Of a stretch of 64,000 bases of DNA, positions 1,266 through 61,351 are shown in pieces. How positions within the stretch are numbered: position 1 is the stretch's first letter; each line of letters starts with the position of its first letter. The stretch comes from a virus. Under the pieces are notes generated by a model. It saw only the letters and a program-made list of their open reading frames with translations, had not been told where the DNA came from and did not search any database. The position numbers and the translations under genes are program-made. The stretch lies in IMG/VR virus record IMGVR_UViG_3300023274_000046. The stretch is one strand, 5' to 3'.

Positions 1266-22567
<21,302 letters not shown>

Positions 22568-47953: not shown

Positions 47954-50900
47954 ATGTTGTATATTGTGAATGAAATGACATTTAGTGGATATAATGTATA
48001 TAGTTTAAACTTATTATATATTATTGCTATATTATTAGGTATACTAGTTATTATTAGCAAAAACCCTATTGATATATTATTTGGGGTAAACTATCAAATT
48101 CCGGGGACACCCTAAAGCTTATGATACCAAGCTGTAGTTGAAAGACTATTAGTGGATGAATTAATCACTCATGTATGGTAAAAAGTCATAAGATGATCCT
48201 TTATATTAGCAAAGGAGAAATAGGCAATCGCGGATCTAAGTCAGTAACATAATAATTACTGTAAAAGAGCAACGATTAGATGGTAGTTAGTAGTGGTATT
48301 TAAGTAAATAATATTACTACTTAAGGTATAATCTACAAATTAAAAAAAAATATGTGATTGTAAATAATTTCAATCTAAACTTACTTACATTTTATTCTGA
48401 TGTAGACTCAGGAGGTGTCTCCTACTCTAATCATAAATATATTGTATTACAATCCCGTGTACCCCGACCTCACCAATTAAATGATCTCTTGATAAGGTCA
48501 TATCATACTAAATCTTTAAGTAGCTTACGTACACCCTTAGAGTTAAATCCTTGATTTATAACTGGATTTACTGATGGGGAAGGTTCATTCTCATTAAGTG
48601 TTAGAGATATAGATAAGTATACTAAAAAAGGAAAAGTACTCTATGTATTTTCAATAATATTACATAAGAAAGACGAGGGTATATTAAGAAGTATCTCATC
48701 CGCAGTTATTACGCTATTGCTTGGTTATTACCGTAAATTTAAAGATAGATGTAGTTTTGATTTAGAATGAGCTTTACATAACCCACCTAAACCATACGCA
48801 TTTACTCACTTACCTTTACAGAGTAAACTTCAACATCCACATGCGGGTTATTTTTGATGAATGATGCACAGACGTAATGTGCATGCACACGAATCTAACG
48901 CACCTACTGAGGAACATATTCAGAGGTACTATCAGAAATACATTGAACCATTGACCCCCGAACAACAAAATAATTTTGATAGAAAATTAATACGAATAGA
49001 TGATAAATTTTTGGAGAAAATACGAGGTAATGGAATGCAGCAGTGTCCGAATCATGGTATCAAAGATGTTCAAGGTAGTAATTGTAAAGGAACATATATT
49101 TTTGACCAGTATGAGTTAAATCCTCTTATGAATATTATGCATAATGACGAAATTCAAAGCATACTCTTTGTAGTAAACGGAGAGTGGGTTATTTGCTTAA
49201 GATACCTAATTATGTATTTTATGATTAAAAATGGATATAATTTTAAAACTATATGATCATTTATAAGTTCGAATATTATTTATGTTATAAAAATTCTTGC
49301 GAATAACGTTAGTAGTATAATTTTTCTCTATTTAGCTATTATATCCAGTATGGTATTTTTATTAATTAGTGGTAACTATTTAGATGCTAGCTTTGTTAGT
49401 TATGACGTACTTAAAGCTTGAGAACTTTACTTCCAAAATAGTGCTAGTCCACCTAATAATATTTTTTCAGGTTATAGAAATTATTTACAATATTCAACTA
49501 ATTATCCTCTAATACTATCTTCCAACCCCGGGGGGGTTAGAAGAAATAGATCTTTTTCTACCTCTATTCTCCCCTATAACTCCGTTACAAGGGGAAGCTT
49601 ATTAAATCTTAAAGAAATACCTCGTAGGAAGTTTTATTGCTCAACTTCATTAAATAGGGATTTACTTAGTGATGAAGATTTTTACGAATGGTTACGTGGT
49701 TTGATAGATGGTGAAGGTTGTTTTTATATAAGAAAAAACTTGATCCGAGAGAATTCTCCATTCACATTTTTATTCTTAATTAATTTACACATTGATGATA
49801 AGGCTGCGCTTGACTATATTCAAATGAGGTTGAATATCGGTAAGGTCGATGTTATCAAAGATGGAAAAATGAGTAGTTTATCAGTTGTGAAAAAAACAGA
49901 GATAAAAGTACTAATTGACATTTTAAGTAAAGTTCCTTTGAATACAACTAAAAGGTTAAATTTCGAAGACTGAAAGCAAGCTTATGAGCTTTATTTCGGT
50001 GTAGATAAAATAAGTGATAGAGGAAAAACTATCCTGGAAAAAATAGATGAGATTAAGAAAGGTATGAACACAAGAAGACAATATGAAACACATAAATTTG
50101 AGTTTCATATCACGAAATATTGATTGTTAGGGTTTATAGAAGGAGAAGGTTCATTCTCTATATCGAAAGAACGACTTCAACAGATATTTTTCCTGGGGCA
50201 AGTGTCTAGCGAGAGACCTTTATTAGAAAAAATCACAGAATATTTAGAATATTATAGTGAGGGTTCTATCTCTTATTCCACTAACAATAAGTCCATATTC
50301 GCTATCTATGATAAAACTGAGGATGCTTTACGTAACCGTAAGCCCTTTTCTAGTTTACATTGCGCTAATCAAGAATATTTACTTAAGGTGCTAGTGCCGC
50401 TATTAGATTCATTAACCTGACAAACCAAAAAATTTATGGATTTTAAGGATTGATCAGCAATATTGGAGATAAAAGCTGCCGGTCTTCATCTTAGTTCCCA
50501 AGGTAAAAAAGTGATCCAAAAAGTAATTGCGCAGATGAACAATTACCGTTTGTCAACTAATCCTGATAAAACAAACATAGATAGAAACTTATTGTATTCT
50601 GAAATTGCAGATTTATTAGATCAACCTTCTATTGAAAGAGTAGCCAAAAGACCGGTTAATCTAATAAATGAAAAAGGTGAATTGTTTAAGTCTTTTCCAT
50701 CAATATACGGCTGTGCCAAATTTCTGGGTATAAGTAAATATAAGATTAATACAGCTATAAAACTAAATAAAGCGCTGATTTATGACGAAAAAGTATATTT
50801 TGTGCGTGAGGACTAGGAGTAGGTAAAATATATACACATGGAAAACAAGGAGTACAATTCCGCGTTGAATCTAAAAAAGAGTTATGTATTTTAATAGAAC

Positions 50901-53900
50901 ATTTTGATAAATATCCGTTAATAACCAAGAAAGCTAAAGACTTCTTATGTTTTAAAAAAGCAATTTTCTTAATAAAAAACAAAGAACACTTAACAAAACA
51001 AGGTATGCTAAAGTTAGTATCTCTAAAAGCTTTAATGGGTAAAGGTCTTACTAATGAATTAAAAACTGCCTTTCCTGATCTTATTACAGCAAATGAACTA
51101 GGGATATCTGATTTAACTTTATCTCCAGATTTAATAATAGATCCTTGTTGATTAGCAGGGTTTATTTCAGCGGAAGGTTGTTTTATTATAGGTATTTATA
51201 AATCTACATCTGTAAAAACAGGATACCAAGTACAGTTAAAATTTGTACTAAGTCAACACATAAGAGATAAAGAGTTATTTGAATATTTTGTAAAACATTT
51301 AGGGTATGGTTATACAGCTGTAGATAGAGAAGGAATTTATTTCATAGTTACTAAATTTTCAGATTTAAAAGATAAACTCTTACCTCTATTACATTTACAA
51401 CATCCCGTAGTAGGTTATAAATATTTAGATTATTTGTATTTTATGGAGGCTGTAGAAATGATTCAAAAAAAACTCCATTTAACAGAAGAGGGTTTAAATA
51501 AACTACGTGAGATACAAGTTTTAATGAACAGCGGAAGAAAAAACACACCTGAACAAGATACCGATTCAGTTACAACAGATTAAACTATGTGTTTGTGTGT
51601 GCGGGTAATACAAGAGGGGTAATTAGCAGCTTAGCTTTAAAATAGGTATGTAAGTTTTTAAAAGTAGGCTTTTTAATTTGTGATTGTTTCGGTCTTATTC
51701 TTAATAGGTTTATTTTTATGCATATCTTGTTATTTAATTCTAACAGGGTTAAACTTTATAGGATTATCTTACTTGCTTGTGTACATTGGGGCGGTAGTAA
51801 TAAGTATGAATAAATTTGCCGCGTTGGTTCGAATCCAACTTTACAAGGTCCTTTTAGATAAGTGATATAACTACGTTTTATCTTACATTAATAAAAAATA
51901 TAGAGATTTTAGTTCTCTTACTCTTAAAAAAAAACTTCTTAAAACAAAGACTATCCCTGGCACGGTTGGTCTTATTTGGCTGCAAGGGAGAACAATGGGC
52001 AACTATAGACATCTAGGTAATATAGGCAACAATAGACATATAGGAACAAAACCCATATTATGAGCTAGTTGTTACTCTACTATGACCTATAAAGATTCGC
52101 TAAATAACACAGAATTTTACGAATGATTGTGTGGGTTCGTAGACGGTGAAGGTTACTTTAGAATTAAAAAAGATAGTAGACGAGACAGATTTCCATATGT
52201 TTTTGAGTTTACGATACTTTTACATCTCTTTTATTATTTCTTAATTATATTTTGTCCAAAGCGTCGAATCAATTATTTTTTTATTAAAAAAAAATCCATT
52301 CATTTTTATACTAAAATAAATACTTCATTAAAAGTTCATTCTAGTCCCTTTAAATATGTGGGGTCTAGTCCACGCCTTGGGATCCAAGCTAAGGTAAATT
52401 ATTCCTTGTTAAATAGGATGAAAACTAAACAAATGAATTCAGGAATTTGTTATTATTCAACTAATAATAATCTTATTGTAAATGTGGAAGCAGAATTTAA
52501 AAAAGATGAATCAAAATTAAATCCGCATTGAGTATCTGGATTTGTAGATGCAGAGGGTAGTTTTATGGTTAGGGTATATAAACAAGCAGGGAAAACAGGA
52601 TGAGGTGTCACACCAAGTTTTTCTATCCATTTACATAAAATAGATATTGATATATTATATGCATTACAAAATTATTTTGGAGTAGGTAATGTATATTTAA
52701 ATAAAAATGGAAAATCAGCTAGTTATATAGTTAGTAATTTAAAAGATATAAATAATGTTATTATACCTCATTTTAAAAATTATCCTTTACAAAGCTGTAA
52801 ATGCATTGATTTACAATTATGATCTTTGTGTATTGAAATTGTAGTTAATAAAGAACATTTAACTATAAAAGGGTTAAATAAGATAGTTGAACTTAAATCT
52901 ATTTTAAATAAAGGTTTATCTGAAATATTAAGAGTAAATTTCCCTGGTATTAATTTAATAGAAAGGCCAATATTTCAAGTGAACAAAGGACCACTTAATC
53001 CTTATTGAGTGAGCGGTTTCACCGAGGGTGATGGTTCTTTTTATGTCACTATTTTTTTTTTTCAAAAAAAAATTGAAACTAACTATGTAAGAATGTTTTA
53101 TAGTATTGCTTTAAATAATAGAGAAACTCCTTTAATTCGAAAAATACAAGAGTACTTTAAAGGAATAGGTTCAATAGTAGAAAGTATTGATAATAATTAT
53201 AACACGGTGAAATATAAAGTAGTCTCGATTAAAGATCTTAATGAATTTATTATACCTCAATTTGATACTTATAAATTTTTTGGAAATAAACATCTTAATT
53301 ATTTAATTTGAAAAGAAATATTATTGTTGGTTAACTCTAAAGCTCATTTAACTGCTGAAGGTTTAAAGAAAATTAGATCTCTTCAGTCTAAACTTAATAA
53401 ATGAGAAATTTAGATTAATCCTTTGCTAGTAGTTCTAATAAAAAAAGCCCATGAGCCTTGCCTTGTCCCCCATAAGGCTCTCTCTCTGTGAGAGAGAGAG
53501 GTGACGATAAACCTGTTCTTGATTATATTCAAACTAGTTTAAATTTAGGTAATGTGATATGTAATGGTAAATTTTGTAGATTTAGTGTTTATAGAAAAAC
53601 CGATATAAAAGAGATAATTAGTGTTTTTAGTAAATATCCTTTGAATTCATCTAAAAGACTTAATTTTGAAGATTGAAAAAAAGCTTTTGAACTTTATAAT
53701 GATGAAAATATAAATGGTAATAGAGAAAATATTCTTTCTATTGTAGAGAAATTAAGGGAAGGTATGAATAAAGGAAGATATTATGAAACTTTTAAAGTGG
53801 ATGATGTAAAAATTACTAAATATTGATTATTAGGGTTTATAGAAGGAGAGGGCTCATTTAATTTTCAAAAAAAAGGGTTTGCAGTTACTTTTACTTTAGG

Positions 53901-56900
53901 ACAGGTATCTCGAGATAAACCTTTATTAGAAAAAATTGTTGAGTTTTTAAAATCTCATAGTGGAAATTTATATACTAAAGAGTCTTTTTTAACTATATAT
54001 GATAAAGCTAAAGAGAATAATATAAATCAAAATCCTTATTCAGAAATCCGAAGTTCTAGTTTATATTCTTTACGTAAAGTGCTTGTACCTTTATTAAGCG
54101 ATTTAAATTGACGTTCAAAAAAATATAAAGATTTTAAAGATTGAACTTTAGTTTTAGATTTAAAAGCTGCAGGTCTTCATACTGCATCTGAGGGTAAAGA
54201 ACTTATTTTAAAGATATACTCTCAAATGAATAATAACCGTCTATCCACTAAAAAATCAGATGTGAATGTAGATGTAGATAAATTACATTATGAAATTAAA
54301 CTTTTGTTAGCTAAATCTACTGACCACACAAGTAAAGCCAATTCTGTTAATCTTCATTTAGAAAACGGAGAACTGGTAATGTCTTTCCCATCAATATATA
54401 GTTGTGCCAAATTTTTAGGTGTTAATAAGTATAGAGTTTCTCAAAGTTTAACTTTGAATAAACCGTTTAATGTAGATAATAAGGTTTACTATGTGCGTAA
54501 CGCATAAATTTACAATATAAGTTACAATAACTTATCTGGTACACAATTAAGAAGGTTGAGCTAAGTTGTTTATTTATATGTTACCATAGGTGCGGTAAAA
54601 AAACGTATGGTTAGATCATTTAGATCTAATTTTGCAGCGTGGGTTAGAATCCCACTCTACAAGGTACTTTTAATTATAAACAATTTTTTTTTTAAAATAA
54701 TGTTGTACAAACTTCCTTCTTTATTTAAGTTTAAAAGGGAAGCACCGTCAGCTTTCGCTTTATTTTTTTCGACGTTATTTCGAATATTCGCAATAAATAG
54801 AAATAAATTAGCGCAAGAGGAATCATATTTTTCTCAAAAGTCGTCCTGCAGCAACCACGACGAAGAATTTATTAAATGATTTGTAGGGTTCTCAGATGCA
54901 GAGTCTAATTTCACTATAGTCTTATATAAAGATAAAACTGGTAAAATTATATCTTTTACTTTCAGATTTTTGATAGAGTTACACGTTGATGACATAGATG
55001 CTTTAAAATTAATAAAAAATAAATTAAATCTAGGAAATGATATAGTAGTGTATGGTAATAGTTGTAAATTTACGGTAACACATCGAAAAGATATTTATAA
55101 ATTAATAGCTATATTTGATAAATATAACCTAAATACTACTAAGTACCTTGATTATTTAGATTTTAAGAAAGCTTTTAATTTATATCTGGGAAGAGATAAG
55201 ACAATTAAAGAGAAACAAAATTTAATAGATCAAATACTAGAATTAAAAAATAGAATGAACAAGTCTCGTGTTAATTTTAGTTTACCTGCAGATCATCAAA
55301 TAGTAATATCTGGTCCTTGATTACTAGGGTTTATTGAGGGAGAAGGTTCATTTTATTTAGATAGAACTGAATTTAGACCTGTTTTTTCAATTATACAAAC
55401 TGAAATACAGCTACCTGTAATGGAAAAAATTAAATAATTTTTAGAGAGTAATTTAGGGTTTGATAAGTATTCTATGTTTAAATTAAAATGTTCATCCGCT
55501 ATATCTATTAAAAGAGGTAAAGCTCTAAATAATAGTAAATCGTTAGCAGTAGTTGTAATTAATAATACAAATATCTTAAATAATTATTTAATACCCTATT
55601 TAGAAAAAAAAAATATGCCGTTTATTACTAAAAAAGGTAAAGATTTTTATGATTTTAAAATTATATGCACTGCTGTGTATAATGGAACTTATAGAACAGA
55701 GGAAATAAAACTGTTAATCTTAAAATTGTCGTATTCTATGAATAACTTTAGATTAAGTACAAACTCAGATTTAAAAAAAGTTCCTAGTTTATTTAAGGAA
55801 AGTTTAGATAAAATCATAAAAGCAAAACCAACGATTAGACATCTTGATGATGGTCGTCAATTAGATATTGTCACTGGAAAAGCGGTGAATACACGTTGAA
55901 CTAATTGTATTTATGAAATAATTAAAGATTCAGGAGAAATGTTCTGAGCGTCTACTTTAAACGAGGCGGCTGAAATTTTAGGTGTAGATTTTAGAACAGT
56001 AAGAAGGCATTTAGAACAGGAAGACTTATACTCAAATGGATATTACGTCGAAATAAATGGCCATAAGGTTAGAAGAATACCAGTATTTTATCCTTAAGAA
56101 TCAACTCTTTTTTTTTGTGTGGGCAAAAGACTATTTGGTCCTGGAATTATAGTTAAGTCCTTAATAGGGAATAAATTTATTAAACTAGGAAGGTAGTTCT
56201 AGCAACACGGTAATGTAATGAGTACGCCGGAAAAAAAATCCATTGTAGGATGGTTATCCTGAACGCTGTTTTGGGATACGACGATGAGCCTTTAGTTACT
56301 TATGTAGCAAGGAAAAAAAAAATTAAAAAGAATTAAGAGCATAGGAACTGAAAGAAGGTTCAACTGTACAGTTCTATACTTGTAGAAAAAATTAGGTGAA
56401 TACGGTTAATAATATCTTAATTAAAGACCGTCGGCAGATGAAAATGTCGCAACAGACTGGATCACCGGGGCTAGGTTGCAATACCTGTTCTAATGTACAG
56501 TCGGATTCTAATACGAGTGTGAAATCGTAAGGAGGAAAGACAATACAGTAAGCTACACACAGTTGTATAATCATTCATACTATGATAGTTACTCCTAGAT
56601 ATGATAGTGTTAACTAGACGCTAGCTTAATCTTAATTAGAATTGATCTATATTATTTTTATTTATATTAATGCTAATAAATGTTAGGATATCGGAATTAT
56701 TAATTGATAGTATAAATAGTATACCTTTAGCCATATTATTAGGTAGTTTTTTTAATTATTTTGTTAATAATGTTTTACCTTACATGGTGATTACTAATAA
56801 TTTACTTTATCATTTTAGCATAAAAAAAAAATTAGCCAATGTAACATCTGTATCATGAGATGGATATTTAGCAGAAACTTCTCATATAACAAGTATAGGA

Positions 56901-59504: not shown

Positions 59505-59710
59505 AATAAAACTAAAAAAATAAAACAAAATAAAAAAACAAATCTAAAGGGCTAGTGTAGTTTGAGATTAAGTTAGGGGTAGCTAGCTTATTATGGGGGG
59601 TGCAAATACCCTGGTCCTTAAGAATAAAAAAAAAATAAATCCTGAAAAGTAGATACCTAATTAGATTTATCTTTTTAGTTTATAGATGTGCAACTCATCT
59701 ACAGGGTATC

Positions 59711-61351
59711 ATGAAAATAATCAAACTAACACTAATATCATTATTATCTAATTCAATAACACTAAGACGAGACAAATCCATTTTTTGTAATAGGATAACT
59801 ATTTCGCCCGCCGTCGGGGAGATTTTAGTTATTTCTATTTTTCTTTTAGCCAACTATTACATAGCTTTTATTTCGGATCTTTACACAGATAAGGGGCCCC
59901 CCTTACCAGCATGTATTACTAATGATTTTCAAAGGCAATTTTATAGAATAACAGATTGTTATTTATTTTCTACTTTTGTTCCTTTTTCAGAACAGTGATG
60001 TAAAGAGAAGAAAGTTGAACTTTATAAAAAAGGGTTTCCAGCTGTTTTCGAGGACATGTCACAAATTAAAAAATATGATTATTTTGCTATTACTAATTTT
60101 ACGATAAACCCTTTATCTTATTATTCTCTTAAAAACATCCCTGGGATTTACATGATTACCAACAAGATTACTAAAAAGATATATATTGGAATGTCTACTA
60201 ATCTTAAAGATAGATTTTATAATTATCTGGATGAAAAGAGATTAAACAGAGATAGATCTTCCAGAATTAATAAAGCGTTACTTAAATTTGGTTTCGATAA
60301 GTTTTCTATTTCTATTTTAGAGTTCACTCATATTGAACAAGGGACCACGGTTAAGATTTCTTATTTAAGAGAAGACTTTTTCATTAAAGTTTTTAAACCT
60401 CAATATAATATTAAAAGATCTTCCTATAATTTTAATCTTGAAATAAAGGGAAATAATAAAGTTATTATGAAATTAGATATACCTCTAAAAATTAAAAATT
60501 TACTTGATAAGTGCTTAGATATTATTCATGAGCTATTCTCTGTAGCATATAAAAAATATGCTTACAATTTATTTAACTATCTATTAAATAGACTAAAAGA
60601 ATATAAACTATTCTACCTAATTGTTATCTTTTTTTATTCTATTATCCAAAATATCGAAAAAATACTATTATCTAATAATGGGTTATCTTTATTATTTATT
60701 ATTGGTTTATTTGTAGGTGATCAGTTTATATATTATAAAACCCTGTTGTTTTTATATTATATAACTTTTTTTAAAAATTATTTACAAGATAATAAGGAAA
60801 TATTAAAGAGTTACCCTAAAATTCAAGAATTTTTAATAAATACTTTTGAATTGTTACAGAAAGTTCTATTAGGAATAATACTAGGTATTGTAACTAATAC
60901 ACTAGTATCTTATTTAAAAAAGATTTGGGGATATATTCTTAAAATGTTTAGACAAAACAGGAATAATACTGAGAATAATAATTCTATACAAGAAGATAAC
61001 GGAAATAATAAGAATCCTAATCCAGACAATTCAGATCCTTTACTAAATAAAGAGGAAATAAGAAAGAAAAAAAACGTAGAAAGGAATAGAAGATATAAAA
61101 CAAAAAAAAAAATGAATCAAACCCCTGAGGAGAGGGAAGCTGACTCTAAAAAAAACGCTGAAAAGAATAGAATATATAGAGAAAAAAAAAAAATGAATGA
61201 AACTACTCAGGACAAAGAAAAAAAAACACGGGGGTATAGGGAAAGAAAGAGAAAACAAAGAGACATTATAAAACAGGTCATTAAAGATCATGAAGAAAGG
61301 CTAGCTAGAGAAAGGCTAGCTAGAGAAAGAGATAACGGAAATAATAACTAA
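59711..61351 (+). CDS. Chimeric ORF (546 aa): Nad2-like N-terminus, GIY-YIG module, membrane domain, Asn-rich and charged tail
   Basis: LLSNSITLRRDKSIF; PGIYMITNKITKKIYIGMS; YILKMFRQNRNN; the 59711 and 60056 track ORFs are in frame across TGA. Confidence 0.8.

Follow-up and report, generated by a model that had tools for sequence, protein, structure and literature searches.

The DNA analysed here, hereafter the window, is a single stretch of 64,000 nucleotides (IMG/VR virus record IMGVR_UViG_3300023274_000046). It contains a many-intron cox1 gene on the minus strand, nad4, rns, tRNA genes and nad6. The gene order trnY-nad6-trnV-trnK and the rns-nad6 neighbourhood agree with the published Stemphylium lycopersici map, and among named species Bipolaris cookei and Stagonosporopsis vannaccii supply the closest homologues. 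We infer from this content that the window is a piece of the mitochondrial genome of a member of the Pleosporales. The first intron of nad6 holds a nest of coding elements in which a resident gene for a LAGLIDADG endonuclease is interrupted by a second, complete LAGLIDADG homing endonuclease gene (HEG-2) and by an in-frame cassette. This cassette joins a copy of the end of cox1, a 193-codon segment that we term cargo 2 and a copy of the start of mature cox2 (Table 1). We refer to it as copy 2; a comparable arrangement with another cargo, copy 1, lies in an intron of cox1.

Table 1 Features of the nad6 intron 1 nest and of related elements elsewhere in the window
Feature	Position	Strand	Basis
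nad6 exon 1 (M..ISKNP)	47975..48067	+	Translation
nad6 intron 1, host of the entire nest	48068..51682	+	Weak splice joint, 48067 to 51683
Resident LAGLIDADG gene, N-part, GTG start to ..ILRSI	48354..48695	+	Pfam LAGLIDADG_1; same GTG start and sequence in loci L004, L005 and L006
Cassette, 861 bp (287 codons), in frame, in place of one CAA (Gln) codon	48696..49556	+	DNA alignment of filled (window, L006) and empty (L004, L005) alleles
Copy of the last 41 cox1 codons	48702..48824	+	Hidden Markov model (HMM) of the native cox1 end
Cargo 2, 193 codons, in the position of the native inter-subunit linker	48825..49403	+	Translation
Hydrophobic stretch shortly before the cox2-like Asp, with one strong candidate for a membrane helix	49275..49382	+	Kyte-Doolittle hydropathy, 19-residue mean up to 2.48
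Copy of the first 16 codons of mature cox2 (DVLKAWELYFQNSASP; DVLKAW..NSASP)	49404..49451	+	HMM of the native cox2 start
35-codon cassette tail	49452..49556	+	Present in filled alleles only
TCTAC, remnant of the resident Gln-Ser-Thr codons between cassette and HEG-2	49557..49561	+	L004, L005 and empty-allele sequences
HEG-2, complete LAGLIDADG gene with two motifs, lying within the resident gene	49562..50816	+	Pfam LAGLIDADG_1 (PF00961), 120.5 bits, 3 stretches
Resident LAGLIDADG gene, C-part (LGVGKIY..)	50813..51583	+	Open reading frame 50771..51583, Pfam LAGLIDADG_1
Copy 1: cox1 end, cargo 1, cox2 start, in-frame stop at 8679-8681	8655..9662	-	HMM matches, 26 homologues
HEG-2 paralogue in the next nad6 intron, fused to a nad6 exon	53476..54507	+	blastn, 66% nucleotide identity

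Reading frames in nad6 intron 1

Under translation code 4 (mould mitochondrial), one open reading frame (ORF) of 834 codons at 48312..50816 spans the resident N-part, the cassette and HEG-2. A preliminary description of this DNA had reported such a single frame, and the peptides that it quoted, among them DRCSF..LPLQS of the cox1-end copy at 48744-48824, lie within it at the positions given there. HEG-2 lacks a start codon and depends for its translation on the resident GTG at 48354, so that HEG-2 can be made only if an insertion between the two keeps the frame. The first in-frame ATG of the ORF, at 48861, lies where cargo 2 starts; L003, a locus of a different fungus, also has this methionine. 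The resident gene is cut between ILRSI and LGVGKIY, as described earlier; its C-part resumes in another frame because HEG-2 was inserted, and the HEG-2 stop codon at 50814-50816 overlaps resident sequence.

The HEG-2 protein shares 88% of its amino acids with protein P0037 and 79% with P0038, and its more distant relatives are ORFs of nad6 introns. The ends of HEG-2 and its relatives (window 50640-50810, ..FPSIYGCAKFLGISKYK..) resemble by eye a helix-turn-helix of the NUMOD type, a family for which the Pfam scan gave no match. Nesting of one endonuclease gene within another is common in this genome, since the HEG-2 paralogue in the next nad6 intron is also split by another LAGLIDADG gene (ORFs 51677..53413 and 53476..54507).

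Exon 2 of nad6 begins near 51683, and an ORF opening at 51677 matches Pfam Oxidored_q3. RNA data consisted of Logan contigs from four low-coverage metatranscriptomes, which show alleles of relatives and one possible nad6 splice joint but no expression of the cassette; this joint, 48067-51683, occurs in one contig that has just 25 nucleotides on its shorter side.

Allelic states and order of insertion

The preliminary description had taken the interruption of the resident gene to be a single insert of 2.1 kb. Alignment of alleles resolves it instead into two nested insertions, with three allelic states: empty, HEG-2 only, and HEG-2 plus cassette. The empty state is represented by an RNA-library contig of a relative that joins 48695 to 50813 with CAATCTACT between (ILRSI-QST-LGVGKIY), an uninterrupted resident allele that reads ATC CAA TCT ACT CTA GGA. 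In the two cassette-free alleles (P0037/L004 and P0038/L005), the resident N-part after ILRSI-QST is joined straight to HEG-2, the DNA reading ATC CAA TCT AC and then HEG-2. The filled alleles, those of the window, L006 and L007, read ATC, the 861 bp of 48696-49556, TCT AC and HEG-2; the P0054/L006 allele has 96% identity. The simplest reading of these three states is that HEG-2 split the resident gene first and that the cassette was inserted later. The cassette sits 5 bp upstream of the 5' boundary of HEG-2, and its length is a multiple of three. We found no target-site duplication at its junctions and no terminal direct or inverted repeats around it.

The tail of the cassette (49452-49556) has no source in the window or in the 87 loci collected. 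It was considered as a duplicated target site and rejected, because its resemblance to the target is not significant (shuffle p 0.2-0.85). A GC cluster of 6 nucleotides (part of CCCCGGGGGGG) at 49526-49531 of the window's tail is missing from L006, L007 and one RNA-library contig.

DNA of the cassette region occurs in soil or leaf-litter metagenomes. At least half of the words sampled from 48600-50900 are contained in each of 12 public runs, and the same filled structure is present in two independent JGI assemblies (L006 and L007). An assembly artefact, a concern raised in the preliminary description, is therefore excluded.

End motifs and the native cox1-cox2 junction

Pleosporales encode cox1 and cox2 as one continuous frame, a feature published as typical of the order (PMC5626475, PMC6221350 and PMC8956966). 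An exhaustive HMMER search of 1.8 billion representative proteins, with the 252-residue cassette as query, recovered about 25 that share the cox1 end and continue from it, with no stop, across a variable linker into DAPRAWGLYFQDSASPQMEALVELHDNIMYYLV, real cox2 sequence. One of them, P0023 (953 residues), is a complete Cox1-linker-Cox2 protein, and P0017 comprises the C-terminal part of Cox1, a linker and a complete Cox2. A contig of an NCBI genome assembly (L001) shows the native junction with cox1 exons upstream and cox2 exons downstream. In metagenomes both motifs lie in one frame in 80 of 80 loci, 16-38 codons apart and most often 23; the scan covered the best 80 loci, is biased to short linkers like that of the query and says little on the frequency of long linkers or of ectopic copies. 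The metagenome linkers listed have one hydrophobic helix with Cys at the end. Over the native junctions as a whole, the flanks are invariant and the linker spans 16 to about 400 residues, the long linkers being among the proteins of the HMMER search, and the peptide of the native cox2 start, DAPRAWGLYFQDSASP, is identical in 82 of 82 native loci.

Solved fungal Cox1 chains stop one residue past the equivalent of the LPLQS motif, and mature Cox2 chains in solved structures begin at the Asp aligned with that of DAPRAW. The yeast Cox2 precursor has a leader of 15 residues (..TTFIMN) that aligns with the linker's end; Imp1 cuts this leader off in the intermembrane space (PMC5905295). The linker closes with a membrane helix, usually followed by Cys, leads straight into the Asp with which mature Cox2 begins, and thus occupies the place of the Cox2 leader peptide. 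In copy 2, the Asp codon at 49404 aligns with the same residue. On these sequence comparisons, the end motifs of the cassette are the two sides of the native Pleosporales cox1-cox2 junction, and cargo 2 stands at the position of the linker.

The context of copy 2 differs from that of the native junction in having the LAGLIDADG stub of nad6 intron 1 upstream and the 35-codon tail and HEG-2 downstream. None of the native junctions searched has the 193-residue linker of the cassette, and an HMM of native short linkers matches nothing in the window, including the last membrane segment of the cassette.

Native junctions showed further features. Short linkers are one 23-residue helix ending in Cys, and some long ones have CxxC-rich or acidic stretches and share a YRLYKLP(S/T)R motif (set P0006-P0028, L008-L087). 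Three proteins (P0015, P0018 and P0032) have the chimeric order of a cox2 start followed by a cox1 end, which suggests tandemly duplicated junction units. In 6 of the 80 native loci from metagenomes (L010, L038, L068, L077, L082 and L087), an extra partial cox1-end or cox2-start fragment lies at most 4 kb away.

Two ectopic copies with unrelated cargos

The preliminary description had left the significance of the motif matches to be checked. The matches prove significant. HMMs built from native junction sequences (15 for the cox1 end) and run on the six-frame translation of the window match at the two cassettes only. The cox1-end model scores 50.5 bits in copy 2 (E 4e-17, 48702-48824) and 12.7 bits in copy 1 (9662-9609); the cox2-start model scores 42.7 bits in copy 1 (8729-8655) and 13.4 bits in copy 2 (E 1.5e-5, 49413-49451). 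Copy 1 keeps 18 cox1 codons and copy 2 keeps 41, and their cox2 parts extend over 25 matched codons (about 35 by eye) and 16 codons, respectively. Both copies have drifted from the native sequence. The cox1 end of copy 2 (48702-48824) has at most 78% nucleotide identity to any of 82 native loci compared, and substitutions relative to the invariant native cox2-start peptide number 5 of 16 residues in copy 2, where 11 of 16 match, and 3 of 16 in copy 1. Neither is a copy of the other: their cox2-like DNA, once called nearly identical, is instead 81% identical over 48 nucleotides, and each resembles native cox2 more closely (92% and 87.5%). WELYFQ stands in both ectopic cox2 starts (Glu codons at 8712-8714 and 49422-49424), where 82 of 82 native loci have WGLYFQ; this common Gly-to-Glu change may be due to chance or to gene conversion with an unseen native copy.

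Copy 1 is an insertion in the leader of a LAGLIDADG ORF, in the cox1 intron after ..YQHLF, and lies between ..FIFIVP and the endonuclease core. It does not end neatly at SASP: its in-frame stop is followed by further cox2 sequence (Pfam COX2_TM positions 2-32, E 2e-4). Several of the 26 homologues of cargo 1 are found at the same site, fused after the cox1 exon ..YQHLF, and one of them, P0128, is open into the LAGLIDADG core. In many fungi, for example Bipolaris cookei and Monilinia laxa, this intron ORF usually lacks the cassette. A Bipolaris cookei protein (P0161) has a different in-frame insertion, 20 residues rich in G, P and S, at the leader position of copy 1, a site that seems to tolerate or attract insertions.

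Comparison of cargo 1 with cargo 2 revealed no relationship, in agreement with the preliminary description. Its claim of two independent in-frame insertions into endonuclease genes also stands, given empty alleles for both, differing cox1 and cox2 breakpoints and unrelated cargos.

The cargos occur in a further context. Proteins P0133 and P0140 (cargo 1) and locus L003 (cargo 2) begin with an N-terminal Nad2 leader, followed by a cox1 tail of the PKPHAF/PKPYAF type and the cargo. In L003 the unit of cox1 end and cargo 2 lies between the Nad2-like leader and a membrane-domain ORF, and there is no cox2 start. The region L003:359-2608 and window 59639-61351 have in common the Nad2-like leader and a part with membrane domain and charged tail (47% identity); the module in the middle differs, being cox1 end plus cargo 2 in L003 and a GIY-YIG endonuclease in the window. 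Since the L003 unit occupies the place of the window's GIY-YIG endonuclease, such units move between contexts and tend to occupy endonuclease slots. The cox2-like DNA of the cargo-1 family is in another frame in Stagonosporopsis vannaccii and is missing from the forms with a Nad2 leader.

Cargo 2 and its evolution

Cargo 2 matches nothing beyond noise in Pfam, PDB or the ESM Atlas. The cassette contains no endonuclease domain and, at E values up to 10, no Pfam family beyond noise, and it has no PDB or Atlas match. An AlphaFold2 model of cargo 2 from a three-sequence alignment has a mean predicted local distance difference test score (pLDDT) of 51 and a predicted TM-score (pTM) of 0.34. Homologues of cargo 2 are those of L006 and L007, with 92% amino-acid identity over the cargo, and that of L003, with 48-50%.

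The ratio of non-synonymous to synonymous change (omega, dN/dS) for the cassette is 0.67 in comparison with L006, from 24 non-synonymous and 8 synonymous changes, and 0.65 in comparison with L003, where dS is 0.50. The cox1-end part evolves as fast as cargo 2, with an omega of about 0.7. By these ratios the cassette evolves almost neutrally. HEG-2 has a dN/dS of 0.30-0.40 against L004 and L005, indicating purifying selection. Given the 153 differences from L003, 191 codons stay open in 0.15% of random-walk simulations (p ~0.0015). Some selection on the reading frame is likely, and perhaps on the cargo proteins as well.

Origin of the cassette

The cassette is a diverged ectopic copy of a cox1-cox2 junction, and we consider it probable that it was captured by break repair at the boundary of a homing endonuclease gene and is read through as a passenger. 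Nad6 intron 1 first carried the resident LAGLIDADG gene, which HEG-2 then split; the cassette entered later, upstream of HEG-2 and in frame, as the third level of the nest. It would have been placed by illegitimate recombination or by templated repair of a double-strand break during endonuclease activity at the HEG-2 boundary. At this boundary only stop-free fillers in frame would survive, and a cox1-cox2 junction offers a long stretch free of stops. The cassette would then be translated between the resident stub and HEG-2 while its cox1 and cox2 motifs decay. If translated, the product would run from the resident stub through the Cox1 tail, a soluble region, a membrane segment and the Cox2 start into HEG-2, and any anchoring in the membrane or cut before the Asp would be a by-product without selected function.

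Several observations weigh against this explanation. No donor locus was found in the window or the 87 loci, and neither was a target-site duplication or a terminal repeat, so that the mechanism is one we infer; the native junction of this genome lies outside the window. Capture of random fillers leaves unexplained why both insertions and the L003 unit are of junction type. The frame is open in L003, where no endonuclease gene follows, and the L006 cassette is open although its HEG-2 has an in-frame stop (at about 11390 of L006) shortly after the first LAGLIDADG motif; translation of HEG-2 is therefore not the sole reason for the open frame. Cargo 2 has conserved blocks, and the membrane region of the cargo-1 family is strongly conserved, which hints at a function of the cargos themselves.

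These last observations favour a less likely alternative, that the cargos are real accessory membrane-protein genes. They would be chimeric ORFs like those of cytoplasmic male sterility (CMS) in plants, with the Cox1 tail or leader aiding expression, insertion or contact with Cox1 assembly factors. The frame of cargo 2 is still open in three lineages at a dS of up to 0.5, which the simulations make improbable under neutrality (p ~0.0015); besides its conserved blocks, the cargo has the first in-frame ATG of the ORF at its start, and the Met is kept in L003. Cargo 1 has its 26 homologues in two contexts and its strongly conserved membrane region, and both cargos also follow a Nad2 leader (L003, P0133/P0140). 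Against such genes stand an omega of 0.65-0.76, the lack of any family, fold or Atlas match and the pLDDT of 51. The cargo-2 family is moreover confined to two lineages among the 1.8 billion representative proteins, and its support in RNA libraries consists of one short contig.

With slightly less confidence still, we consider that the long linkers may be a family of selfish, endonuclease-free hitchhiker genes of Pleosporales mitochondria, modules that encode membrane protein without a stop and colonise freely translated positions in frame. Such positions would be the Cox1-Cox2 junction, the leaders of intron endonucleases and the slot behind the Nad2 leader. Short homology arms from cox1 and cox2 would spread with these genes, and endonucleases nearby may mobilise the genes in trans.

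The preliminary description had proposed a recurrent, undescribed mobile or processing module, in which the cassette would insert into the membrane and a cut before the Asp would free the downstream endonuclease. Recurrence is borne out by the two insertions and by L003. Both insertions are independent, in frame and upstream of LAGLIDADG cores, the hydrophobic stretch directly precedes the Asp as it does at native junctions, and in alignments this Asp corresponds to the first residue of mature Cox2. The module itself is not new, however, its motifs being those of the native junction, and a dedicated processing role is improbable. The flanking motifs drift and are not conserved, with an omega of about 0.7. 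Within the cargo-1 family, the cox2 start is frameshifted in Stagonosporopsis vannaccii and missing where a Nad2 leader is present, and in the window a stop comes after it; L003 has no cox2 start. Imp1 acts on the intermembrane-space side (PMC5905295), which is the wrong compartment for a DNA endonuclease, and most alleles of both endonuclease genes lack the cassette.

It is very improbable that the cassette is a chimera created by assembly or a twintron, a nested group I intron spliced from the endonuclease mRNA. The window does derive from a metagenome, and its insert is in frame with the upstream 'exon', as are many intron ORFs. A chimera is, however, at odds with the 12 runs and with two independent assemblies that have the same junctions. 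An RNA-library contig crosses the 3' junction of the cassette unspliced, and the four low-coverage RNA libraries contain no 48695-49557 joint. The cassette gave no Rfam match, a search in which the group I model is weak on mitochondrial introns, and it is made of coding-gene fragments, with no ribozyme core.

Least credible of all is an origin of HEG-2 from a cox2 intron after ..DSASP with co-conversion of exon, linker and cox1 end: the cox2 homology of copy 2 does stop exactly at SASP with the frame running on into HEG-2, and intron ORFs fused to the upstream exon are common, but the idea that HEG-2 dragged a cox2 exon along is refuted by cassette-free alleles, in which HEG-2 interrupts the same resident gene at an identical site, and by the nearest relatives of HEG-2, which are ORFs of nad6 and not cox2 introns, and TCTAC and the 35-codon tail separate the cox2 start from HEG-2.

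Relation to known systems

The CMS-type ORFs of plants are chimeras of pieces of core mitochondrial genes and unknown sequence with membrane segments. They belong to another kingdom, and the cassette ORF differs in being embedded in endonuclease frames. Nested homing endonuclease genes in fungal mitochondria form in-frame fusions with their hosts and have duplicated ends of core genes near the insertion; Paquin et al. in 1994 are said to have described, for Allomyces atp6 and ORF360, gene-end fragments carried or left by mobile endonuclease genes. Unlike such elements, the cassette contains no endonuclease, moved apart from HEG-2 and brings a two-gene junction with a long foreign linker.

The closest system is the native cox1/cox2 ORF of Pleosporales (Stemphylium lycopersici, Coniothyrium glycines, Exserohilum and other fungi), which has the same motifs in the same order and frame, uninterrupted by a stop, and a membrane segment before the Asp. 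Compared with this junction, the cassette is ectopic, retains only 41 and 16 codons of the two genes and has drifting motifs. The excerpts of PMC5626475, PMC6221350 and PMC8956966 describe adjacency or fusion without an intergenic spacer and mention neither long variable linkers nor ectopic copies. Acanthamoeba castellanii and Dictyostelium discoideum likewise have a fused cox1/2 ORF (Burger 1995, Lonergan and Gray 1996, cited in PMC5626475). There, in an unrelated lineage, both subunits share one frame, with two products in Acanthamoeba, and the cited text reports no dispersed junction copies.

The yeast pre-Cox2 leader (PMC5905295) ends where the linker ends, and has 15 residues where linkers have tens to hundreds. 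Unlike this leader, the linker is attached to Cox1 at native junctions, or to an endonuclease stub here, and its cleavage site is putative. The residue before the Asp is Tyr in copy 2, Cys at native Pleosporales junctions and Asn in yeast.

The known Pleosporales fusion as the source of the motifs removes most of the surprise of finding them together. The literature that we searched holds no description of long hypervariable native linkers or of ectopic in-frame junction copies; the fusion itself is known, and the recurrent in-frame spread of junction copies looks undescribed.

Implications

The hypervariable linker between invariant flanks implies that Cox1 and Cox2 must arise from one polyprotein, the middle of which is dispensable and in some cases large. 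If the linkers are indeed hitchhiker genes, this would account for such hypervariability. Junction copies with unrelated linkers have been inserted beside the boundaries of homing endonuclease genes at least twice, cassette-free alleles persist for both, and the same linker unit recurs in other chimeric ORFs. These mitochondria thus offer a natural system for studying how a mitochondrial polyprotein is cut and how much extra protein is tolerated at the Cox1-Cox2 junction, and for following how double-strand-break repair near endonuclease genes shuffles coding pieces into new mitochondrial ORFs.

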